64,000 nucleotides of DNA from Obrimoposthia wandeli (Eukaryota): contig CDROCS010001934.1 in NCBI GenBank assembly GCA_977020255.1, forward strand, positions 186,001 to 250,000. The letters run 5' to 3'. The translations under genes were made by a program, and so were the position numbers. The notes under the pieces are model-generated. The model was not told where the DNA came from. It was given only the letters and a program-made list of their open reading frames with translations, and ran no database searches. Below, piece after piece: positions 4,930-43,605 of this stretch (position 1 is the first letter of the stretch; every line of letters starts with the position of its first letter).

Positions 4930-5932
4930 AAATTTAATTCCCAACATTATTACCATCTTCTTCCCTTCAACAACCACTGTGGCAAAATTGGTTTCGCTAA
5001 AAGATAACTTGATAATTCTTCCTAATGTCCATTTTTCAGTCCATTCTTTTTATAGAGTTATTACTATACCATTAAATTTCAATGGCTTCTTATCTTCTAA
5101 CTAATTTTGTCTCACTGCCCACATATACATTATTTCTTCATTCAATGGTTCTATATTTAATATAACAACTACTGAAACAACCTCCGTCTCTGGTATTTTC
5201 TTTCTACCACTATGCTCACAACTTGCTATTCCATTAGTTAATAAAATGTTTGAGTGTCAGGGCTTCTAATTCCTATTCATCAATACTCTTGTAGTAAAAT
5301 GGGCCAGCATTTATTATTTGATTCACTTCAATCAATATGGCCCTGCATAATCTTACTGAATGCGCACAAATGCTTGTGGAAGTTCCTCAATTTGGAGCTT
5401 TGTTAATGGTGCCATTTATTCTTCTATAGATTTGCTTTATATTTTTTATAATGTACACAATATCTTTCTTATTAACTGCCTCACATTTTAGATTCAACAC
5501 ATTTTTGAAGCTTGCTTAATACATATTGAATAGCTGTAAAATGTCAATATTTTTGATAGTCTTATACAATCAATTTACTCAATCACGTTTTCATGATAAT
5601 ACTATGGGAAACTTAGTGTATTGAGATTAAAGCCCGGCTTGGATTATTCGTGTATTTGTCATCAATAACATTTAATCATCTAAAATGGTTCATGCTTCGT
5701 ATTTTACTTATGCTTTATACCGCTTCATTTTTTTGAATATTTTTAATTTCCTCAGCAAAATATTTTAATTTGTCTTCTTTAGTTATATGTTTATTTCCAA
5801 TTAAATATCATCCGACCTTAACTCTCCAGGCTTTCACTATTTAAGATTGAAACGAGTTATTCAGATTTTAATCTGTTTTAACATTTGCAACTCCAATAAC
5901 GTTTTAATCTCAAAACAAATTAAGTTAACACT
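4930..5932 (-). pseudogene. BEL/Pao LTR retrotransposon pol remnant (integrase and C-terminal part)
   Basis: Manual - strand translation gives MAPLTKLQIEELPQAFVRIQxDYAGP...KCW, KFPIVL and WTLGRIIKL, which are BEL/Pao integrase-region motifs. Many stops and frameshifts. Confidence 0.75.
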
Positions 5933-6179
5933 TGTAGACAAATCGTAAATCCAAGATGGCTTGGAGAAAGATATATTTAAATTCTGCCGTTTCACGGATT
6001 ATAGAATATTAAAACAAGACTAAACAAGAAACAACGATTTTATTCTCGACGTTGTCTTCCCAATTAGCACCGTTTGTCAATCTTTTCAAATAACTACACG
6101 CTGGTTTCAATCATACACCTTTGGGAAAGTGTCCAATCATCTGACCGCCATGAGAAAACCTTTGCCTTCGCGTTAAATT

Positions 6180-7287
6180 GTCATTCCCTTTAGCCAGTAT
6201 ATTGTCGCGCTTCCATACTATCACATTTTGGTTTTAATGAATTCGCCTTGGGTCAACATGGATTTGTAGACAAGCCTTCCTTAAATCCACAATGCTCAAG
6301 TTGTCTCCCAATCTTCTCCATTCTCTCAGCTTTTCTCCACATACTTCACTTTGAGCTGTATGGCTTGAAACATAATCGTTAGCTCTCGGTAATCAATCAC
6401 AGGACGAACCTTTCCTTTGTTTTGCTGTAGAACGGCCATGAGAGGTATTACACCAGTGTGCTCACCATCATACTTTCTTAGCCAACCTTGTTCTATCCAT
6501 TCTTCAATCTCTTCTTCAAATTGATTTAGTACCTCACCTTTTACCCGATATTGACTCACCTGGTTATGTAGAGCTGGCTTCATGATTCCTTTTTTCCATT
6601 CCAATCTCGCGATCCATCTTCCATTCTCGAACTTTGCATGGAAATCCTTATCCACGACATCCACGACTTCTCCCTGAATGACATTCTTCATTCCTCCTTC
6701 ATGTACACAAGTTTCATCCTTTGACTTGAATATACTATTCACTGTATAACCACACCCAACTTTTTCTTCCATCGCACAATCAACTGTTGGTTGTAAAGAG
6801 AACCGTTTGCCCGGAAGCACATTCACATGAAAATCGACTCCAACCGGATTCGATGAATCTGATACCGCACAGACCTCATTGAATTGGCCAAACATAACAT
6901 TCTTTCCATCACCACTTACCCAAATTCCACCAAGTATATTGACAGCATCCATTCCCAACAACATGTCATAGCCAGGTACTATACAAGAAAATAGATGCAC
7001 TTTAGTTGAATTTTACGTCCATTGACATTAACTTCACATTTCATGCACTTCCTCGAATTTACACTTTGTCTGTTCATTAATATTATGTTATGATCAAAAT
7101 TTGTGATTAATCCTTTGATTGTCAACGCATCTGAAAGAATAGATCTCGAACATCCCGTATCAACCATTGCTTTCAAAGCTTTAGTTCCAACATGGATGAT
7201 AACAGTTGGAATATACGCCGCATCATTGGGAGAGCCGCTGGCGCATATGGACTCCCTTAGTGGTTTTTTGATTCTCGTTTGGGACAT
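6180..7287 (-). pseudogene. pol: pol fragment: aspartic protease plus truncated reverse transcriptase
   Basis: ORF 6979-7287 contains AMVDTGCSRS. ORF 6326-7000 contains LLGMDA and GVIPLMAVLQQNKGKVRPVIDYREL. The RT continues after a frameshift to LQIHVD and is then lost. Confidence 0.85.
7211..7269 (-). promoter_or_regulatory. -1 programmed ribosomal frameshift signal (A AAA AAC, 6-nt spacer, H-type pseudoknot)
   Basis: The heptamer (7263-7269) is correctly phased in the gag frame (TCA AAA AAC CAC TAA), and a -1 shift enters the protease frame (KKPLRES). Stem 1 is GGGAG/CTCCC and stem 2 is ATATGCGCC/GGCGTATAT. Confidence 0.75.
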
Positions 7288-7940
7288 AATGGCGCCAAGT
7301 GACCAACTATATTACAGATGTAGCATCTGCGTTTTTCTTTCACATGCCAGTTTCTATAAACATGGCCTTCATCTCCACATCGGAAGCATTTGATTCCTGA
7401 ACTAATTATTCTTTTTATATGATGAGCTGCGACAGCTCCAACTTGGAAGATACCTTCAATTCCAATTTGTTTTGTCATCCTAGTCCGGGCTTCAGCTACA
7501 ACTTGCTCTAAGGAACAGTTTCCACACTTCATCGAAATTTCCAGAGCTTCTGAAGTGTCTGAAGGCAGGCCAGCGACTATCGCCAATTTTACAATGTTAT
7601 CTCCCATACCAATCTTTGATGCCAAACTTTTCAATTCCGACGCAAACCGATCGACTGATTCTCCGAGTTGCCACTTTCTTTGACTGAATCGCTTAAACGC
7701 CTCGAGCTGACCCATCCCACAGGTATCTCTTTATCGCTTCATAATTGATTATGCGTTTTTCTTTTCGTCTACTTCTAAATTCAAAAACATCATTAAGGCT
7801 TCACCTTTCTTTCTCAACGGAATAATTGAACTTAATTTTTTCTCCAGTCCAAGCAGATCGGCCTTCATTTTGATCTCACTAATCCACTCATCCACATTCG
7901 ACGTCCCATCGAAAATGCCGGTGCTCTTCAATTTCTTCAT
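7257..7940 (-). pseudogene. gag: gag (disrupted near 7716-7749), two zinc knuckles
   Basis: ORFs 7749-7940 and 7257-7715; CFRCGDEGH and CYICNIVGHLAPLC. Confidence 0.85.
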
Positions 7941-8052
7941 AGCCGAAATAGCTTTTAGACAAATCGTAAATCCAAGATGGCTTGGAGAAAGATATATTTA
8001 AATTCTGCCGTTTCACGGATTATAGAATATTAAAACAAGACTTCAAACAACA

Positions 8053-9148: not shown

Positions 9149-10761
9149 CAGTTGTGATCAAAAAGTAAGTGTCCACTTCGAATTTTTATTGCAATTCTTG
9201 ATTTTTCTAAAATATCATATATATAATGAATCTGAGTTAGTATATTTAGAAACTAATTATAAAATATATAATATAAAACAATAATATAACTATATTTTTT
9301 TCGTAATCTGGAGAAACATATTATTTAGAATATAATAAGTAATGCACTACTATAAAAATTAGTGTCCAAATAAAGAGTAAGTTATAAAACAACGTTTAAA
9401 CATTTATTAGCTAATTACAACAAAGGTTCTATGAAAGTTTCAATATTTAATGTTATTTGCTATTAATATTTACTATTATTGCTTTTTTTAAATTTAATTA
9501 TAGTCTGAAGTCGTCTTAGGATAGAATTGTAAAGATTACTTATTATTGCATCAGGTATTTCATCAAATACCTTCTTTACTAAATCAAATAATACTGTTTT
9601 TCTTCGAAAAATTTGATTTTTCATGTTTCTTTTCATGATTCCCCAGATATTTTCAGTGATATTTATGTCTAAGGAATATGGAGGCCAATCGCGAACAAAA
9701 GGTATTTCGTTCCTTTCGTGATAATTAATAGTTGATCTGGACCTATGAGCTGGCGCACCATCCTATATTAATATTGAGTTGGTATTTTTAATAAATTGAC
9801 AACGCCTCTTCAAGTATTCCTTGTTAGTTGCCAGAATTAACATCACAGAGACACAAAATTATTAAACGTTTACCGTATCCGGTGATAGAACCCCATACAC
9901 AAATAGAATATCCACCAAATTTCACTGTATATTTCGATTTAAACCTCGAATTGGGAGGTCTTCGAACTATACGAGAAGATTTATATGTTTGAAAGCAAGC
10001 CTCATCAGAGAAGACATAGTTTTTCTAATCTGAAATGGACATGTCAAGTGTGCGCTTTACACCAAAGGAAGTGTCGTCAAAAGTTTGTTTTCTGTTAGGG
10101 TTTTTTAGCTGATTTTCTGGAAAATAAATTACTGTGGCGTAAATTTCGTCTCACAGTAATTAATGATACTTTGTCATGCAAATTTGTCTCTACAGTGAGC
10201 TCTTTAGCTGTTAGGAAAAGATCAGTGGCAGACTTTCAGCACAATAAACAACTTTGTTTCTTCGATATACTTCGCGGTATACCAGGTTTTGATTTATTTT
10301 TTAAAGAATTAGTCTCTATATACCTTTTATATATTTTTGACACAGTAGAATGCCCACCAAGATTGCAATCTTCCGATAGGACACACTGTTGTTTATTTGC
10401 CTTATTATCTCCATTATAATGACTTCTTTATTTTAACCATATCTGACAAAATATTATAAATTTATATATATATAGGCTTACGCTAAACTAAATAAATTAT
10501 AATTACTTAATCATTACATGATAAATATGGACACTTACTTTTGATAACTTTCGTTTTGATTTGATAATAAAACTTCTATTAAACCACAACACTGTATTAA
10601 ATTACTTATAATTTTATATTTTTAAAAATCCGGCCATATATTTATAATATTAAAACAAAAGAAAGAATTGAAATTTGCATAAACAAATTTAGGTAAATAT
10701 ATTTTATAATTTATTACAAAGTGGACACTTACTTTTGATTACATATATATATATATCACTG
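9149..10761 (-). mobile_element. Tc1-like (DD34E) DNA transposon, decayed, IR/DR-type ends
   Basis: TA + CAGTTGTGATCAAAAAGTAAGTGTCCACTT on the left, with its inverse at 10719-10743, and inner repeats near 9360 and 10526. The - strand gives VFSDEACFQT, (Q)DGAPAHR and WPPYSLDINITENIW. Confidence 0.8.
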
Positions 10762-16117: not shown

Positions 16118-17441
16118 AGGTTTCAAGAATGATAAGATCTGTTTATTTTTGACGCATACCTTTACACATTTACCAAATAAAGTAATTGTTTCATCTTCTG
16201 AATTTTTACAAAATTGCATTAATTCTTAAACAAATTGAAAGTCATATTTAATAAGTCCAAATTTCCTACTTTTCTCAACAAAATAATTAAATTTATTAAA
16301 ATTTTAAAAATAAATTTTTCTATAAATATTTTAAAAACAGATCAATAATATGTTATTTTAAATTAAATAATTTTATATTGTTTTAAATGGTTTGTAATTT
16401 ATAATATATATGTTATACTAAAATTGAAGCTTGTTTAACTTTATCATATACTGTAAATAATAATTTGATAAAAGTAATCCATGTGACAAATATGAACCCC
16501 TGATAAATCAGAAAAATTTGAAAGATAAAAGTTAAATACTAAAGTTGTCATTAAATATTAAGCAATTTTCATCAAAAAATCATATATTTTTAAGGAAAAA
16601 TTTTGATAATTAAAAATTCCTCACACGATTGAAATTCTTTTATAAAATAAACTGTTCGTTTATTAAATATTTGGAGAGTGGAAATATTATACAACTTTTC
16701 AAGGTATATGTGTTGGGTTATTAAATTGGAATCGTTATACCTTTGGACACACAAATTGATCAAATATTAATCTGAATTTACAAAAAAATTACCTAAAAAT
16801 ATTTAATCATGTAGCCAACGACCACAAAAATGCATAGGACAAGAAAAATAGTTTCGGACAAATACAAGTTTAAATGTAGTAATTTGATGAAAATCAGAGA
16901 TTTATATATTTAGTTGATATTTTAGAATCCCGATTAATTGTATTAAAGATATACTTTTAAATCATTACTTTAATGCCGTTATCATGTAATTTTTATTTTA
17001 CATCAATGTTTTTATGAATGTATTATTTTTTGAAATAAATCTTATGCTCTGTGGTTTGCTATTCTAAAAATTATCCTATTTTTTGTCATAAAATTTAAAG
17101 CAATGATGTTTTATACAACAACTAATTTTCAATATCTAGTCATCGTTGTTAAAAAGTTAAATAATAAAAATTACTTTACATAATGTAAGCATTTTATTAT
17201 AATAGCATTTTTAATAATGGCTGATTTCTAGATTTTTAATTTTTTTTTTCATAAATTTGAAGTTGATGGCATTTATTTATCTGTTGAACAGTGTTGTGTT
17301 TAAGTGTGCCAATATAATAATCTCACTAACCGATACATTTTAAATATTTTGAACTGATTAAAAGTGACTTTTCAATATATTTAATAGACCAACAATTCTT
17401 TACACTTGTTTACGAAGTTATTTAGCTGAAATATTTCTAAA

Positions 17442-17628
17442 ATGTCTTTTAATGTACGAGAATGTATTGTTATGAAGAGGTCCGATTTCGAAGGTTATGG
17501 ATTCAACTTGCATTCCGAAAATGGGAAATTGATCCAGTATATTGGTCATGTGGAGCCTGAATCACCTGCATACACTTCAGGTTTGCTAAAAAATGATGTA
17601 GTAATCGAGGTTAATGGAGCCAATATAA
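17442..17628 (+). CDS. NHERF: NHERF/EBP50/Sip1-like PDZ scaffold, exon 1
   Basis: GYGFNLHSE...YIGHVEPESPAYTSGLLKNDVVIEVNGANI is a NHERF-type PDZ domain. GTGAGA donor at 17629 and a 53-nt intron. Confidence 0.85.
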
Positions 17629-17681
17629 GTGAGACTTTTTTGTATTTAAAGTACTCATTTTAATTCATTTTAATTGATTAG

Positions 17682-17914
17682 TCGAAGAACAGCACCAAGA
17701 AGTTGTGAATCGTATCAAAGCAGATTCCAGTCAGGTCTGCCTGCTGGTGATTGACAATGACGGCTTCGAGTACTGTAGCAGAGAAAATATCCGAATCACT
17801 CGTGACATGATCAATTCACGCGATTCAGAGAACTACTATGAAAGTAAATCAATTAGTGAATGGGTAGATAATATTTTTGCTGTAGAAAATGTGGACACTT
17901 CAATGGGGGTAACG
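17682..17914 (+). CDS. NHERF: NHERF-like, exon 2 (end of PDZ)
   Basis: After the TAG acceptor the frame continues (I)EEQHQEVVNRIKADSSQVCLLVID. It ends at a phase-0 GTGAGT donor at 17915. Confidence 0.85.
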
Positions 17915-17953
17915 GTGAGTCACATTTTTCGTTCTACCCATTTTACTAATTGA

Positions 17954-21184: not shown

Positions 21185-21717
21185 AACACTCTGTATCCCA
21201 AAACACTGACAGCATGGTTTCTTTTCTATGAATTGTCCCCGATCTCATTTTTTGAGGCCTTCTCATTCGCAAATTTTCATTCTGGTAAATACATACTAAG
21301 AGTGGTTTCATCAGTTGTTACAATGTTACTAAATTTTCCTTAAATTGTTCAGAAATTTCTGGAGGTCTTTCTGTTTTTTATCATCAAAGACAAAAGTCTG
21401 GCCATGTTTAAAATACTTAACCCAAATTTTTTTAGTAGCACATGATGGAGAATCATCCTCTTAGGTATCTTGAAACATTTATTTGTTCCAGTTGCATTTA
21501 AATCTTGTAAAACGAAGAACTTGATAACACTTCTGTATTCGACTTGATTTATCATTACTTAGGAGAAATTTGAAAATGTGCGAATAACAAATTAAAAAAA
21601 GAAGTAATTAAAACAAAATAAAAATATGTTTTACCTATATATAGTGATGAAGTTATATAAGAAATTTATGGTTTCTATTTGTTATATTTCTATGTTAGGT
21701 TAGGTACTTATTGAACA
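21185..21717 (-). mobile_element. Internally deleted and truncated copy of the mariner at 36966-38143
   Basis: INQVEYRSVIKFFVLQDLNAT, TDETTLSMY and GTIHRKETMLSVFWDT match the other copy. A TIR-like sequence lies at 21687-21717. Confidence 0.75.
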
Positions 21718-23482
21718 TTCCATGTATGTTGCTAATGATGTCAAACGCATTTCTTTTGTTATCCATCTATTGATTAGTTATGTCATTATGAAATTATTCA
21801 ATTAAATATTTCTAGCAGCCAGCATGGTCGTTGTTTTCTTAGTCTTTTTGCTCAAGCCAGGTCATAGGAGAACAAAATGACACATTTGAAAAGTTTACCT
21901 GCAGTTCAAAAAACTGGATCAATATCTTTTGCATACCATTTAAAAAAGACATTCATAAAAATGTTAAAGAATTTTTCCTTAATCGTTTTCTAAATTTAAT
22001 TGTGCTAACTTTGAGATTTATAATACGATCGAAAATGTTCAACATAGACTTTAGCGGTTTCAATGCAGTACAATCTAAAATGTTCAGGATTAATTTAAAA
22101 GTTCACATGTTAAACATATCAAAACGGTGGAAAATCCTTGAATTAATAAGACGATTTTAAAATAGCTGAAACAATTTCAGGATTTTAAATCACTTTTCTG
22201 AATATTTCCGTAATTTAATCGTGTATCACTACATATATTTGCTTTATCTACTACAATTCTCAATTTGTTTCGAATCACTCTTTGAATGCTCACTTTGCAC
22301 ATTCCACAGATTTCTTTTGCTATTCGGTGTTAAGTCGGCGTTGACAAAATGATAAACACAGTATAAAAGTAATAGGTATTTAAATAATTTCCATTGTTTA
22401 TTTAAAAGACATTCATGAACAACCCGTTAAACTAAATACTTTTATTTAGATATAGATTCACCTTTTATGTCACTCGCTACCTCCAAAACGTTGTTATTAC
22501 AATATCGGCGGAGGTGATAAAATTTAGGGTGATTCTAAAAATAGCCAATTAGCAATTTAGATAGTTAAAATAATTTCAAATTTATACGAAGAAAATTTAC
22601 TTCCATTTAGTTGCTCTACCGGAACTTTGTTAATGTCTGTTGTGCAAAAATATGATTTCGTGGAGCAAAAAAATAATAGAAAAAAACTTATAAAAAATTC
22701 CATTCCAATGGCCTGATTTCCTTTTGTATTTAAAAAAAAACTATTTTTAACACCTTTTAACAAATTTAAAAAAATTTAATATGAGTGTCTAGCCATCTTT
22801 GTTAAGCAGGACTGGTGATGTGGGATGGATTTAAAAAAAAACGTTATTTTAAATCTTGGTATAAAACTAAAGTTAAAAATGTGTGATAATTATTGCGTAA
22901 TGCGGTGTTAATGTTTTGTGGGCGATTTTGAAATGTATCTTTGAGTGATTTCATGAATATTTTCCAGCGAAACAAGACAGGTGGCTGCTGGTTACATTAA
23001 GCCAAAATAGTGAACTTTACCATCTGGCGTCGTAATTTGAACTGAATTATGTATTGAATATTTCTGGTGGAAAATATTTTTACCAGTAGGCATTGGAGAA
23101 AAGACCTAAAACTATAAATATATAACTTCATTACATATCTATTAGGTTATAGTCATAATGTAGCAGACATTATAGGTAAATATAGGAAATGATTTTAGCA
23201 AGTCACGGTCCATTTAACCGCTTTGTTCGAACTTAATTTTGCTTGAAATGGTGCAAAATTAGTCATGTAAACTACTAAAAAATAACATTTTATACATGGG
23301 AAAGAAATTTCAATAAAGTCACTTTCCAAAACGTGAATTTACAAGAAAAAGTAAAGCTGTAGAAGATGCACGAGAAGAGTAAAGTGTTGGTTCTAAAACA
23401 ATAGCACACAAAGAACTAACTCCCCCTATCGCAGTTTTAATCTTTCAAAGGTTCTTGTTTATATTAGGAGGCTAGTAAAAGT

Positions 23483-23730
23483 CTATATTGATATATAACT
23501 ATATTCATTATCATCAAAATCCCTACTATCTTCTTCTTCTACTTTACTGAGTGTTGCAACTTTAGGCTTCAAGTCTCCATTAAACATTTGATTCATATAA
23601 AGTTCTTCAATCCTCAGACACAAAGTTTTGATGCAACAAATAGGTTAAAGTATTTTTCAGTATACTGTGCCATCAAGGTAGGGCTCAGGTTATTATGGAG
23701 AGATTGCAATTTTTCTTTAGAAGTAGTCAT
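23483..23730 (-). pseudogene. Small ORF (~82 aa, acidic C-terminus) with one frameshift, inside the cassette
   Basis: MTTSKEKLQSLHNNLSPTLMAQYTEKYFNLFVASKLCV / IEELYMNQMFNGDLKPKVATLSKVEEEDSRDFDDNEYSYISI*. The stop falls inside the inner inverted repeat. Confidence 0.45.
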
Positions 23731-23939
23731 TTGAAATAAGGATAAATTGGTTGAAAGGTGTATATATTTATAAAGAATTTGTTGAAATTATCCAATGAGT
23801 AGCTAGTAGGAAGTCAAGACATGGTTATGATACATACAATGGATTAAAAATAAATATCAATAAAAATATATACATACTATCGTTTAAAAAGGATATATAC
23901 AATATTCTGTTTATTACAATATAAAAAAGAAAGATATTA

Positions 23940-24140
23940 GTCAATACTTTCAATAGGTTACCCCATATTTTATACACCTATCTTAGACTATAGTGTCTTT
24001 ATGCGATGGATTTGATTTTCTCAATCCAAATCCTTTTATCGTCATAACACCTTAACGCAACTAAAACACTATCAACAGTTCTATAATGAAGTATATTATC
24101 AACGAGCATTTTCAAATCATATAATAATAACAATTCAACT
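23940..24140 (-). pseudogene. Decayed ORF between the TBP-like gene and the small acidic ORF
   Basis: ELLLLYDLKMLVDNILHYRTVDSVLVALRCYDDKRIWIEKIKSIA*RHYSLR*VYKIWGNLLKVL is coding-like but contains stops. Confidence 0.35.
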
Positions 24141-24156
24141 AAATAAAATGTATTTT

Positions 24157-24645
24157 TTATATCAAAAGTAAAATATCAGTTATTATCCAAGTCACATCAA
24201 AGTTATAATCCAAATCCTTGAGACCGAGTATGATCACTTTCCCGCTTGCAAATATGTTGACACATATAGGATTTTGTTTTGAAAACCTCAAAGCAGGAGA
24301 GAACTGAGGTTCGAACATGCATGCGGCTCTACACTTTTGAGACAACTTGTATAGGTTCACCTCTTACCTAAATCGACAGTAACCGTTATTGATTGAATAC
24401 GTCCAATCTTTATTCTAAATGGATACTTGAGCATAGTAGTAGTAATAGGTTTCTTGCAACACATTATCCTGCATGCTCCTAATAATAATAATAATAAACT
24501 AACATAAAAACATACCTGAGCGGAAGATTATAAAGGTATTATCCTTACACCTGTGCACGTACTGACAGGGTTTCCCGGCTTTGAAGGGTAAGTGACTGAT
24601 GTATTCTTTAACTTTACCTTTATAATTAATATTTGCAAGATTCAT
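24157..24645 (-). pseudogene. Divergent TATA-binding-protein-fold gene (two TBP repeats), one intron, one frameshift
   Basis: Exon 1 24645-24516 (MNLANINYKG...TFIIFRSG), GT-AG intron 24515-24479, exon 2 ACRIM...IQSITVTVDLGK-(frameshift near 24362)-VNLYKLS...MFEPQFSPALRF...CVNIFASGKVIILGLK. This parallels the TBP repeats IF.SGK and IQN...D...YEPELFPGL...IF.SGKV..TGAK. Confidence 0.7.
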
Positions 24646-24768
24646 GATTGAATTAATGGAAATAATCCCCCTATATATATAATATTCATGAGCTAAACAT
24701 TAAACAATCAGAATCGAGTATGATGATATATAAGCTACCACTTGTCGTATAGAATTCATTATTTTGAT

Positions 24769-25422
24769 ATGAGCTATAAACAAACTCTCAAGTTTGAGAA
24801 GCCAACATCAAGGCTTGCGGATACAGATGAGGATACAGATGATGATATAGTTTTCATATCAAAACCTAAGAAGCAAACTATGTCAAGCAGCAACAAACAA
24901 TCCAAGACTATCAAGATCGAGAAGCAAGCAACAAATGAGGATCTCTTTATTGATGATATAGTTTCTGCACCCACACACAAGAAACCAATCACTACAAGCA
25001 ACAACAACAATAGTCCAACAGCAGTTGTAATATTAGAGTCTAATGATTTGAAGTTCACCAAGCCGGTTATGTTTTTTAAATGGCAAATGAATTTCTTGAA
25101 GACTCCAATCTCATTTGGATTCATGTTTCCGGTGGCGCTGAATAAGTCAAAATATGATTTCAAGATGCATAGAATCAATCTGTCAGATATTGATGATCTC
25201 AACAAAACTTTCGCGTCGATGCATCTCAACATCATAGTTGGCAATCATATAATCATTCAAGCTGATCATAATCTCTTCAAGCGTGATCATGACTTTAATG
25301 CTGACAAGATGGGAACTGGACTCAAATGGATGATTGTCATTGCGATACACGGCTACAAAATCAACTGTGCAGGTCTTCAGAAACCCATCTGGAAAATTAC
25401 TGATGGACAAGTTCGCTTATGA
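24769..25422 (+). CDS. Intact 217-aa orphan ORF (acidic/low-complexity N-terminus, beta-rich C-terminal domain)
   Basis: Longest uninterrupted non-transposon ORF in the window, ATG at 24769, upstream TATATAA at ~24727, intronless. No family recognised with confidence. Confidence 0.7.
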   Translation: MSYKQTLKFEKPTSRLADTDEDTDDDIVFISKPKKQTMSSSNKQSKTIKIEKQATNEDLFIDDIVSAPTHKKPITTSNNNNSPTAVVILESNDLKFTKPVMFFKWQMNFLKTPISFGFMFPVALNKSKYDFKMHRINLSDIDDLNKTFASMHLNIIVGNHIIIQADHNLFKRDHDFNADKMGTGLKWMIVIAIHGYKINCAGLQKPIWKITDGQVRL

Positions 25423-25890
25423 TTGTGCTAATATATATTATATCAATGCGACTTTGCTTATAAACAATTTCTTTCTTCATCATATAATCATGTATAAACA
25501 TAGACGTTTTTACTAGCTTCTAATATAAACAATAACCGTTCAAGATTAAAACTGCGATAGCTGTCCGGTTATGCGGGCAGTCTAACTCCTGGAATGGGGT
25601 CGCAGTTCTAAGTAAATTAAATAGTTGTAAATAAAAACTTGGGACGGTCAATTGTGTTTAATTTCCAAATTTAATTTTTAAATTTTAATTTCAAAATTGT
25701 TAATATTTTAAATTTTCAAAATGTATCTACTGTAATAAATTTAAAATCTACGCATAATTTTATGCACATACAAATTGCCTACGTTAATTTGAATCTATAC
25801 GGTAATTTGAACTATATACATAATGTCTACGGAAATTTAACCTACATAATTGTAAATAACACATAAGACCAATCTGGTGGATTGAATACG

Positions 25891-26066
25891 TAAAGTGTCG
25901 GTTCAAAAACAATACCACACAAAGAACTACTCCCTCCCCCGAACAAGGAACTAAGAACAAAGTACATATGTATTACTAAGCGCATTCCAGATATTCTTTG
26001 TTCTTCGTTCCTTGTTCGGGGGGTGGGTAGTTCTTTGTGTGCTATTGTTTTAGAACCGACATTTTA
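25891..26066. repeat. Fold-back palindrome (~71 bp arms, ~33 nt loop), MITE-like or terminal hairpin
   Basis: Arms 25891-25962 and 25996-26066 are near-perfect reverse complements. Confidence 0.85.
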
Positions 26067-26458
26067 CACTTCTTGCACGAGTTAAACTAATAAAAGAGAA
26101 GGAGGTGAGAAAAGATCGTATTGAAAATAACTAGAGAAGGAAAAGAAAAATATTATCCGGCTTAAATAAGTAAATTACAATTGACATGTTATTTTTGTTA
26201 GCTGACTTTTTATTAGCATATTTGTATACTGTTAAAATATTCTTTTTTTTTTGAGTTAATTTTTTGGGTCAGTGAAATTTATATGTAATTTATAAATGTC
26301 ACGGAAAGGTCAGGGAAATTGAATGTCAGTGATTGCTTTTAACCATACATGTATATAATTAAACTTAAGACCTTATAACCCTGCATGGAAGAATTTCTTT
26401 TAAACATTTTATAACAAAATAAATTCTGTTTGATTTTTATTTTTTCTTCATATTTTGG

Positions 26459-32560: not shown

Positions 32561-32710
32561 TTAAAGAAATCATCCAACAGAATTAATTTTATGCTACTAA
32601 AATATAATACAATATAATGCAGAAATATAATAGAAAGGTTAACTAAATAACTAATTTTAATTTAGGCCAGAGATTGTTGACAAAACCTTTGTGAAATTGA
32701 TTGTGCACAG

Positions 32711-32947
32711 GCGGACGAGCCAATGGCGGCATATGCAGCACCGAGTTATAACGAGCACCGAGTTACAACGAGTTATAACGATCGCGACAACAACTCTGTC
32801 CATTCTGGTGGGGGAAAGCTGAATCTAGCCGACTTGAGTGCCGAAGAGATCAGATCGAGGACTGCTGAATCCGCTGCCAAGAAGAAGGCAAACCGCAAAA
32901 ATCAAATTCCATTCAAGGATCGCGCCCAGCTTTTCCAGCAGCTGTAA
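32711..32947 (+). CDS. NHERF: NHERF-like, terminal exon with EBP50-type ERM-binding C-terminus
   Basis: CAG acceptor, phase 0 (compatible with exon 2), GC-rich. The tail LNLADLSAEEIRSR...KKK...FKDRAQLFQQL* resembles the NHERF1/Sip1 C-terminus. Three exons give a 218-aa protein; additional internal exons are possible. Confidence 0.75.
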   Translation, partial: ADEPMAAYAAPSYNEHRVTTSYNDRDNNSVHSGGGKLNLADLSAEEIRSRTAESAAKKKANRKNQIPFKDRAQLFQQL

Positions 32948-36965: not shown

Positions 36966-38143
36966 CATTCAATAAGTCCCTAGCCTACCATAGAAAAATG
37001 ATAGATACAATCCTTAATTTTTTCATATAACTACATAATTATATATAGGTAAAAGCTATATACTTTATTTGAATGTGTTACTTTTGTTTATATTTTTAGT
37101 GGCACATTTTCAAATTTATTATAAATCAAGTGAAATACCGGAGTGTTATCAAGTTTTTTGTTTTGCAAGGACTAAACGCAACTGAAATAAATAAAATGCT
37201 TGAAAACGTAGGTCAAGTATTTGAAAAATGGTCGCACTCCTGTGTTTTATGATGAAAGAACGGGAAGACCTCAAGAGATTCCAGATCAAGTTAAGGAAAA
37301 ATTAATTATAATCGTGAATGATGAACGTAGAATCTCTTTTAAAATGCTTTCCATTCGTCTTAATATCATTGTGGGAAGCCTTCACACAATGGTGAAATAT
37401 ATGGGTATTCAAAAACTGAGTTCAAGATTTTTGCCCAGGTTTTTCACTGGTGAAATGAGGAATCGTCGATTGGAGTGCTGTGATGAAAATTTGCAACTTT
37501 ATAAACAGTGGGGTGACCGTTTCCTAAGTAACATTGTAACAACTGATGAAAAAACTCTTTCTATGTACTTGCTCGAATGTCATCATGAATCCACGGAATG
37601 AAAGTTTCCAAATGAGAAGCCCTTAAACAAAATGAGATCGGGAACAATCCATGGAAAAGAAACAATGCTGACAGTGTTTTGGGATACAAAGGGTGTTATA
37701 AAACTTAATTTCACTGAGAAAGGCACTATCAATGCAGCATACTACAGTAATCTTGTAACAACTACTAGACAGAACACACGCAAAGCACAAAACACACCTT
37801 CATGGCTATTGCAGGATAATGCTCCAGTGCACACTACAAACCTCACAGACCCTATAGCTCAGACGTTGCACCTAGTGACTTCTACATGTTTCGGTATCTT
37901 AAGAAGCATATGAGAGTAGACAGCAGAGATGATTTGATCAACAATGTTCGAGATTTTTTCAATAAATGTGAGCCTGGTTTCTTTGAAAAGGCTTTTCGGG
38001 AGCTAATCATCCGCTGGAAAAAAATGTGTTGACAAAAATGGATCATATGACAATAAAAAGACTATATAGTTACATGTTATTGAAAAATAAAAATATATTT
38101 GGTTACTTTCTTTTTTCTATGGTAGGCTGGGACTTATTGAATG
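36966..38143 (+). mobile_element. Near-full-length mariner (DD34D-like) with ~30 bp TIRs and a disrupted transposase
   Basis: TA + CATTCAATAAGTCCC(T)AGCCTACCATAGAAAAA, with its inverse at ~38113-38143. Motifs YRSVIKFF, IVTTDEKT, MLTVFWD and LLQDNAPVHT. Frameshifts and stops present. Confidence 0.9.
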
Positions 38144-40999: not shown

Positions 41000-43605
41000 T
41001 GTTGGGGTTTCTATATGAAATGCTTTCGATTCAGATATATTCTCGGATGGAGGCCCCCAACGTGAGTTCTATAGAAGTAGGGCTTGCAGTTGTTTGTGGC
41101 TTACTTAGAATGTGCTTATCTGTCTCAATGTATAATCTAAAGGTTTGTTTTTATTTGTTTTTGTAGAGATGTGTGAAAAGCTGTGTATACGGCACTGAAA
41201 AAATTCCCCTAGTGTGGTGTAATGTATGGAGTATCTGGTATCTGCTTGAACTCAAATATTTGTTCAAACAACGTTGTTTAAATTGTAGGAAAACTTTATT
41301 ATTGAAAACATACTAATTTACGTTTCTAAAAATAACAACAACTAATCCTAACTTCGCTTCTCTAAACCTCACACAAATGGAGATGTCTTACGTATCGATT
41401 TTATAAATTCTTTTGTGAAACGTTTACTTCTTCTTATGATTTTATCGTACAAAATGTGGAGCGATTTTAAGGACAACTTCTTTTAACTTTATCGTAAAAA
41501 TATGGACGATTTTAATTCAAAGCTTTACTTTCTTTTTACGATTTTATCGTACAAAATTTGGGCGATTTTAAAGTCAACTTCTTTTGATTTTATGAATAAA
41601 ATATTGGCCATTCAATTGAAACTTTAATATGAGACACTTTTGATTTAATTTTATCAATCTTCAAATTTATCAATACTGCTGAACTCAACACGTTTTCAAA
41701 ACACTACACTCGGCACTGCGCACTTCTCACCAGTAATTTTCACTCGAACTTGGCTGCTCGGTTTCTGGGGTCTCAGATCAGTGTTTTCAAGAGATATTGC
41801 TCGGACTCCGGTTCTCTGATCCGTTCCGGTTTGTTTGCTGATCGTAGCGGTTCGAGAGATGAACTGTGTCGTGTCGCCTTTCTCATTTCTCCGATTTTCT
41901 GAGCAAAGTTAGCTGTATTGCAATTTTCTCCAATTTTTGGTTACTTTTCACTCATCGATGACTCATATCCTTTGTTCTCCTAAAGTACACATGACTCATC
42001 ACCTGACCTCATGAGGTAACATGAGGTCAAGGTCATGTTAATGTCAAATTTCTTCGAGTACACCTGATTTTTAAAGGTCATTTGAGGTCATTTTAAGGAC
42101 AGATTTCTCTCAAGTACATCTCATTTTTCAAGGTCAAGGTCATGTGATGTAGGTCAAATTTCTCTCGAGTATACCTGTTTTACAAGGTAATTTCAAGATC
42201 ATGAGTTATATACTTTATTTTATTATACTCATCACTTGAGCTCAAGGTTATTATAAGTTCATGAGCTCATATGCTTACTATGAGCTCAAGGTTATGATGT
42301 TCTTTTACTCATCTCATGAGCCCAAGGTTATTATTATATGATCATGATACCATGTGCCCACCATGAGCCCACCATGAGCCCAAGGTTATCATAAGGTTAG
42401 CAGGCTATCAAGGTTCATAGGTGCTCACTATGAAAGACAGATATCCAATCACATCATCTAAAAGAATTATTGATCGAATATAGATTGACGATTATTCAAA
42501 TAATGTTTGAAAAACACAATAGAAGGACAACAATCAATAGATATTAACAACATATATATTGAAAATAAATTAATAAAAACTTACCTGAGATACTGTAGCA
42601 GAATATAAATATAAATAAATAAAAAAAATCCATCCAGCGGCAGAGTGATGCGATTCCTGCATCAACTGATGGCATTAACCGCACACATACTCCAATTCAA
42701 GACAGATTTTATCTGCCTTGTATTGGAGTGTTAAGTAGGGAAGATAAAATCACACACTCACACAGATGTGATAAAAATGTCACATGACTATGTGAGTGTG
42801 TGATTTACAAATAATTGCACTTGTTTGCAACATTTGTACACGTGATGTGCTTTGTCCTTTGTGAATTATTTCCTTTCACATGTTGAGGACATTTCATGGT
42901 TACTCACATGGTTACTCACTCTTGATGGATTTTCTTTGAGGTGCTTATTTGAGCTGCTTCTTTTAAGGAAGTTATTTGAGTTGCATCTTTTTAGGAAGTT
43001 TTTTGAGTTGCTTCTTTTAAGGAAGTTATTTGAGTTGCTTCTTTTAAGGAAGTTATTTGAGTTGTTTCTTTTAAGAAAGTTATTTGAGTTGCATCTTTTT
43101 AGGAAGTTTATTGAGTTGCTTCTTTTAAGGAAGTTATTTGAGTTGTTTCTTTTAAGGAAGTTATTTGAGTTTCATCTTTTAAGGAAGTTAATTGAGTTGT
43201 TTCTTTTAAGGAAGTTATTTGAGTTGCATCTTTTAAGGAAGTTATTTGAGTTGCTTCCTTTAAGGTACTTCTTTTTGCTGATTCTTCAATTTGCTACTTT
43301 GAGCTGATTATTTATTATGGTTATTCGAATAGGGTTCTCTCAAAGGGTCTAAAACCTTCCAGAGTGAACACTCAAGGGTCCAAACCTTCAAAAATTTTAT
43401 TTTTCTACTTTTCAAAGTTACATATAATAGCATTGATCTGACTTTGATTAGATCTTCGAGGGTGCACCTTCAAGGGTCAAAAACCTTCAAAAAATTTATA
43501 ATTTATGTCATGTCTTTGTTCAAGGAGTCATCGATGAGTCACCTAAAAAGTAGAACAAATACATTTTGTCCTCAGCAGGGGGGTTTTTGTGCCAGAAGTG
43601 CCGCA
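41000..43605 (-). mobile_element. LTR-like repeat, copy B, possibly one ~2.6 kb LTR with several internal tandem arrays
   Basis: Spans TGTTGGGG (41000) to GTGCCAGAAGTGCCGCA (43605). The latter is the inverse of the TGTGGCACTTCTGGCACAAA starts at 57747 and 62456, and all three follow purine-rich tracts. That the span is a single element is inferred. Confidence 0.45.
42945..43265. repeat. 27-bp minisatellite, about 12 copies (TTATTTGAGTTGCTTCTTTTAAGGAAG)
   Basis: Directly visible. It explains the LFELLLLRK repeat ORF at 42852-43307. Confidence 0.95.

Follow-up and report, generated by a model that had tools for sequence, protein, structure and literature searches.

The window, that is, the whole 64,000-nt stretch of Obrimoposthia wandeli DNA that was analysed, carries a TBP-like gene on the minus strand consisting of exon 1 (24516..24645; 130 nt, or 43 codons plus 1 nt) and exon 2 (24157..24478), which are separated by a 37-nt phase-1 GT-AG intron (24479..24515, also minus; GTATGT..ATTAG) splitting the Gly codon of the F-x-S-G turn in the N-lobe. 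The gene is preceded by a likely host-type promoter (24671..24710, minus) with a (TA)n TATA box and a CCAAT-like site, the latter being ATTGG in most sister copies and altered in the window copy, and by a divergent 217-aa ORF (24769..25422, plus). Both genes are contained in a 2,701-bp element (23373-26073) that starts with AG, ends with CT and is flanked by a 6-bp target-site duplication, TGCACG (23367..23372 on the left and 26074..26079 on the right, without strand). Its terminal inverted repeats, given on the plus strand, are unequal: the right one (25482..26073, ending in CT) comprises ~590 bp and includes a palindrome (25890-26067), the left one (23373..23504, starting with AG) has ~460 bp of its inner part deleted, and the inverted matches between them pair 23373-23426 with 26020-26073 and 23426-23504 with 25482-25560. 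On the minus strand there remain the 3′ end of a pPolB gene (23978..24060), which has a premature stop and a 91% match to the pPolB end of sister copies, and the 5′ end of an IAP gene (BIR plus RING; 24059..24109), truncated by an internal deletion whose junction at 24059-24060, with a 2-nt microhomology, brings the beginning of IAP together with the end of pPolB.

Searching the 1.35-Gb genome for further copies of the element gave 3,601 first-look candidates, 40 of which were scored, the best being 83-89% alike over 2 kb. Sister copies have terminal inverted repeats of ~580-590 bp with AG..CT ends, and all five copies for which both ends were displayed have a 6-bp target-site duplication. The gene order of the full element, estimated at ~15 kb, was read from twenty sisters extended inward: terminal repeat, 217-aa ORF, TBP, IAP, ATPase, PZ-like, integrase with chromodomain, minor capsid, PW-like, major capsid, protease, pPolB, terminal repeat. 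Pfam recognises BIR, RING, the rve integrase (PF00665) and pPolB (PF03175); the A32 packaging ATPase has a weak PF04665 match (E 0.0011) plus a Walker A motif, and capsid, PZ, PW and protease, for which there is no Pfam match, are named from gene order and sequence motifs. The 2.7-kb element is an internally deleted Maverick/Polinton remnant, of whose pPolB and integrase genes only the pPolB 3′ end is left in the window; what the original prediction called a “cassette” is actually the deleted remnant of a high-copy Maverick.

The Maverick load of the genome appears very large (30,180 first-look ATPase candidates, which are not copy numbers) and comprises several families, whose ATPases are 66-100% identical and whose gene orders around TBP differ; matches of the host TBP point to an animal host, probably a flatworm, and Maverick expansions have been reported in Dugesia (bioRxiv 10.64898/2025.12.11.693146, available part). 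By eye, a ubiquitin-like stretch ending in RGG is found upstream of pPolB in the family of the window (loci L043:7971-8396, L036 and L045), followed by Cys/His zinc-finger-like motifs without a Pfam match, and in some copies a very long TCT/GAA repeat has expanded in the ORF before this stretch. Other cargo of TBP-bearing Mavericks (among them L104:225-719 and L130:7145-9487) includes a ubiquitin-conjugating enzyme, KilA-N, a parvovirus-type phospholipase A2 domain and exonuclease-like genes. Elsewhere in the window there are exons of a host PDZ-domain gene (17430-17950 and 32681-32944; PF00595), in an intron of which the Maverick remnant may reside; remnants of Mariner/Tc1 transposases (37212-38029, 21186-21726 and 9466-9762; PF01359), with an inverted partial copy; a deleted Gypsy-like retroelement (5931-8042), in which 91-nt direct repeats flank what look, by eye, like gag zinc knuckles, a protease and the beginning of an RT; and a tandem array of ~12 copies of a 27-nt unit (42945-43265).

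The TBP gene, its intron and the state of the window copy

The predicted layout, a ~150-aa protein encoded by two exons around a 37-nt intron at 24515-24479 and devoid of an N-terminal extension, is borne out. Exon 2 measures 322 nt in 2 of 25 full-length copies, the window copy and one other, and 323 nt in 19; the single frame change near 24362, which had also been predicted, is therefore a lesion of the window copy, although, as only contigs were compared, it may alternatively be an assembly error. Where nearly all sisters have EPELF in the C-lobe loop, the window copy has EPQFS. Further, the word ATAAAC that precedes the IAP gene (24155..24160, minus) and overlaps the TBP stop is intact in 22 of the 24 copies covering the site and is damaged in the window. 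Frameshift, altered loop and damaged word together indicate, at the sequence level, that the window copy is dead, and would be so even apart from the frameshift; the value of the locus itself is limited accordingly. Full-length open exons together with ATG, GT and AG are retained in 6 of the 25 copies that cover the whole gene, and pN/pS within the family is 0.65-0.78, as expected of copies that decay after insertion.

The original prediction had placed an intron in a cargo gene, and the sister copies support it: of 30 copies, 26 have the donor GT and 27 the acceptor AG, and the intron is 34-46 nt long (20 nt in one copy), in most cases a length not divisible by three. The indel density is 0.039 per base in the intron versus 0.005 and 0.002 in the exons, a difference which is inflated because the intron is a TTA run prone to slippage. 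From the conserved borders and position we infer that the intron is spliced. Its length is normal in this genome, as the introns of the host TBP measure 47 and 48 nt. Automatic splice models at other positions were dropped as artefacts of broken copies.

An intron at the same phase-1 position, in the Gly codon of F-x-[ST]-G, is present in other sublineages of the genome and in one metagenome contig, with differing donors (GTATGT, GTTAGT, GTAAAT, GTAATT, GTATAA); the nearest intron-bearing protein from another sublineage is 56% identical to the family of the window. The same genome has an intronless TBP family as well, and the metagenome relatives are nearly all intronless, while a junction probe, which cannot prove absence, found no intronless copy of the family of the window. 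In the tree, the five intron-bearing rows fall, with four intronless rows, into one weakly supported group (84/92) that needs three changes; a single gain followed by losses is possible. The common position would imply that these elements have a past in the nucleus and have made use of the spliceosome, in a group whose vertebrate members are described as intronless.

Fold, relatives and neighbour of the Maverick TBP

The last 66 residues of the window gene match PF00352 above the curated cut-off (E 3.1e-06, 27.4 bits), and among the matches listed all 35 PDB sequences similar to its C-lobe are TBPs; the two N-terminal pieces, of 43 and 37 aa, gave no TBP match in the profile search when taken alone. 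Of the TBP signatures predicted for both halves, that of the C-lobe is thus established by PF00352, and that of the N-lobe only via the protein of an intronless sister, which scores 63.8 bits against PF00352. A structural comparison had also been proposed, and it finds the TBP fold for this sister: the AF2 model (pLDDT 94) has ten strands, and Foldseek against the PDB gives E 2.5e-09, TM 0.7-0.77 and 44 matches at E<=0.001, every one of those listed being a TBP. In the model, helices are confined to the C-lobe; residues 1-75 contain none beyond a 3-residue turn, and H1 and H2 of the canonical N-lobe are missing. The family protein is accordingly modelled as a two-lobed TBP saddle whose N-lobe is without both helices, and the two halves do not appear to be equivalent.

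Residues were counted in 61 dereplicated proteins in which the motif could be anchored. The DNA-kinking phenylalanines are kept, with the L5.1 Phe present in both lobes (58 of 58 in the C-lobe, 56 of 56 in the N-lobe). The equivalent of F288 in the C-lobe is kept in 56/59. The equivalents of the TFIIB contacts E284 and E286, positions taken from the available part of PMC7221094, are kept in 53 and 56 of 59. Both flanks of the N-lobe Phe are shorter by 10-13 residues, and the spacing from L5.1 to the C-lobe is mostly 27-31 residues versus 41 in canonical TBP. By eye, the first residue of the N-lobe Phe pair and both Thr contacts look lost, which could result in weak DNA binding.

A PF00352 search of the genome returned 19,768 first-look candidates (not copy numbers), 150 of which were scored, besides a handful of host TBP genes; at 18 of 20 sampled ATPase loci a TBP gene lies within 6 kb. 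With the intronless sister, 43 database proteins were found, mostly of 145-155 aa, and a profile search gave 63 clusters at E<=1e-30. Of 98 metagenome loci with a TBP of the family 80 were kept, many beside Maverick genes, and a search of IMG/VR with the TBP alignment gave a single weak locus devoid of Maverick genes. Between related metagenome elements, dN/dS falls within 0.12-0.45 for all but one of 16 pairs, the remaining pair being saturated. By these measures the Maverick-borne TBP family is widespread and under purifying selection. A maximum likelihood tree of 92 rows places the Maverick TBPs outside the eukaryotic TBPs, as a clade of their own on a long branch (100/100). The prediction that the protein is neither the host TBP nor TRF agrees with this best tree; however, AU tests do not reject grouping with the host TBP (p 0.15-0.22), and long branches meet there. 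Two canonical host TBP genes lie back to back in this genome (C238:871798-874002); C968 has a TRF-like gene, while C60 and C1092 carry a divergent paralogue devoid of introns.

The domain encoded by the neighbouring 217-aa ORF is conserved beside TBP in many elements. For its C-terminal part a T7 gp2.5-like ssDNA-binding OB fold is predicted: the model (pLDDT 94) matches T7 gp2.5 over 104 aligned residues (Z 7.2, rmsd 3.0), and the other best structural matches are the Enc34 SSB, ASFV CP312R and DUF2815, all at Z 6.7-7.2, below the caution line of 8 of the tool. Resemblance to uncharacterised giant-virus proteins was found as well. The ORF is likely to encode an SSB; a TFIIB- or TFIIA-like partner of TBP was considered and rejected, as the best structural matches are SSBs of the gp2.5 type. 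In five metagenome elements (L088, L092, L093, L094, L106) the SSB-like gene seems, by eye, to have a GT..AG intron of its own (40-50 nt), a hint that only the early genes have introns.

The word (T)ATAAAC and its possible reader

An unbiased count upstream of the structural-block genes (ATPase, PZ, integrase, capsid, PW, protease and exonuclease-like genes; 75 dereplicated windows, metagenome loci alone) gave ATAAAC as the top hexamer. It is present in sense orientation in 66 of the 75 upstream windows, versus 2 in antisense and 11 in gene bodies, and before TBP, SSB or pPolB in 5 of 58 windows of the metagenome loci; as the elements are related, these counts are not independent. When own-genome loci are included, 23 of 24 ATPase windows have the word (2.1 in shuffles), mostly 31-49 nt from the ATG, as do 19 of 20 further own-genome ATPase loci. 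TBP genes are preceded by ATAAAC in 4 of 50 cases and by TATAWA in 29 (12.9 expected). A CCAAT box as a family-wide early element was discarded (14/50 versus 12.5 expected). Some ATAAAC sites lie within coding sequence (read as YKQ or INN). In four elements (L088, L095, L104, L125) a short overlapping ORF directly follows ATAAAC upstream of the integrase ATG; it starts with Met-Gly, ends with Cys-Cys and, judged by eye, possibly encodes a myristoylated virion peptide. A Maverick without TBP was sought as a control and none was found, neither capsid nor ATPase loci being confirmed in IMG/VR; dependence of the word on the TBP of the element is accordingly putative. One TBP-less copy in the genome was rejected for this purpose as rearranged, since 7 of its 11 sisters have TBP within 1.5 kb.

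The reading we favour, with a probability of slightly under 60%, is that this mini-TBP would act as an early switch on (T)ATAAAC upstream of the genes for packaging, integrase and capsid, where it would recruit host TFIIB and Pol II. Host polymerase II would use an ordinary TATA promoter to transcribe the TBP gene, with splicing of its transcript; the conserved C-lobe would then grip the TATA half of the word while the kept glutamates bind host TFIIB, and the helix-less N-lobe would escape the host regulators Mot1/BTAF1, TAF1 and TFIIA and tolerate the C at position 7 of the word. In TBP-DNA complexes the 5′ TATA half belongs to the C-lobe and the 3′ half to the N-lobe; a C-lobe that is conserved and a word altered at its 3′ end are consistent with this division. 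That the protein serves promoters of the element itself, as originally proposed, seems likely, the probable target being TATAAAC of the full elements rather than the TATA boxes of the fragment. Forty further ORFs from 8 elements gave no match to the TFIIB family. According to the available part of Ravarani 2020 (PMC7221094), the C-lobe glutamates contact TFIIB and the N-lobe surface contacts Mot1/BTAF1, TFIIA and Brf1, but most viral TBPs lose the glutamates and work with a TFIIB of their own, which counts against recruitment of host TFIIB.

The word might instead be an ordinary weak TATA box for host TBP, with the mini-TBP a decoy that holds TFIIB or occupies host TATA boxes and so damps host transcription. 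TATAAAC is nearly canonical, and we take the C(-25) TATA variant of PDB entry 1qn3 to be TATAAACG. Wild-type TBP was crystallised on that variant according to the title of the entry, and a site of this kind is therefore within reach of host TBP; moreover, the TFIIB loop is the best-kept surface of the mini-TBP, and the IAP gene is a further host-modulating gene of the element. Despite these points we consider this main rival the less likely reading, since the word precedes the structural block but hardly ever the TBP and SSB genes, which have TATAWA, a split that fits a dedicated reader.

Much less probable is that TBP is unrelated cargo and the word is read by a host factor of the Forkhead type, the consensus of which ATAAACA fits, or is a variant poly(A) signal, for which the many sites right after the stop of the previous gene might speak. 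Orientation is too strict for either (66 sense, 2 antisense), the distance to the next ATG is fixed, and sites occur up to 100 nt within the upstream coding region; GTAAAC, moreover, is found in only 2 of 75 windows, and AATAAA is not enriched (16 sense, 14 antisense, 19 gene-body). Still a little less credible is a non-transcriptional job of the mini-TBP, such as bending AT-rich termini for replication or packaging together with the neighbouring SSB; the adjacency of TBP to the SSB-like gene in many elements and three ATAAAC sites in and next to the right terminal repeat agree with it, but it accounts neither for the conserved TFIIB-contact glutamates nor for a word that tracks gene starts.

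Whether the early switch belongs to a broad animal Maverick lineage with an early-late programme, in which mini-TBP and SSB are host-spliced, the late block is intronless, and a TBP of 145 residues keeps the host-TFIIB contact, dispenses with the host-regulated N-lobe surface and reads a private TATAAAC, is a more tentative matter, for which the chances appear somewhat less than even. If true, the mini-TBP would be among the smallest working TBPs and would offer a handle for inducing capsid genes of Mavericks, whose virions have not been seen. A dedicated TBP and a shared late-type word make Maverick gene control accessible to reporter and binding assays and argue for a virus-like timed cycle in these elements, and in the mini-TBP nature has run an experiment on the surfaces that a TBP can do without.

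Comparison with known systems

The terminal inverted repeats with AG..CT ends, 6-bp duplications, pPolB and integrase, along with the putative ATPase, capsid and protease genes, are those of Maverick/Polinton elements as described in the available parts of PMC8097293 (Barreat and Katzourakis 2021) and PMC8502044; IAP cargo is already known. Intact vertebrate Mavericks are intronless and have eight core genes, with TATA boxes and transcription factors unmentioned in the available text (PMC8097293); gene control of Mavericks/Polintons is called unknown and no virion observed in the accessible part of a recent preprint (bioRxiv 10.64898/2026.06.19.733378). Also known are viral TBPs and, as a label only, a TBP-like gene in a related MELD element (available part of Starrett 2021, PMC8502044, legend to Fig. 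5), the supplement of which gave no match for TBP. No description of this TBP family or promoter word was found in the literature covered, which extends to neither subscription journals, Repbase notes nor bioRxiv supplements. New here, as far as sequence comparison and models can tell, appear to be the one intron position common to several divergent sublineages alongside intronless sisters, and the predicted T7 gp2.5-like SSB fold of the ORF neighbouring TBP.

With cellular TBP and its paralogues (PF00352) the Maverick TBP shares the ten-stranded two-lobed saddle, the L5.1 Phe of both lobes and the EPELF loop of the C-lobe; it differs in its size of ~145-150 aa, 24-26% identity, an N-lobe without H1/H2 and the lack of an N-terminal tail, and the host has canonical TBPs of its own elsewhere in the genome. 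Like TBPs of large dsDNA viruses (PMC7221094, available part, in whose main text “Polinton” is absent), it is a virus-type TBP fold that has lost the regulatory signature of the N-lobe. Those viral TBPs, however, keep the TFIIB glutamate in ~40% of cases versus about 90% in Maverick TBPs, and mostly come with a viral TFIIB, none of which was detected among 40 further ORFs of the Maverick elements; the Maverick TBP, moreover, is far smaller and encoded in an integrating element of 15 kb. A functional parallel may be found in the vTBPs of herpesviruses, e.g. ORF24 of KSHV, which, according to the available parts of PMC12529657 and PMC7498053, direct the late genes, for which they use a variant of the TATA word and the Pol II of the host.
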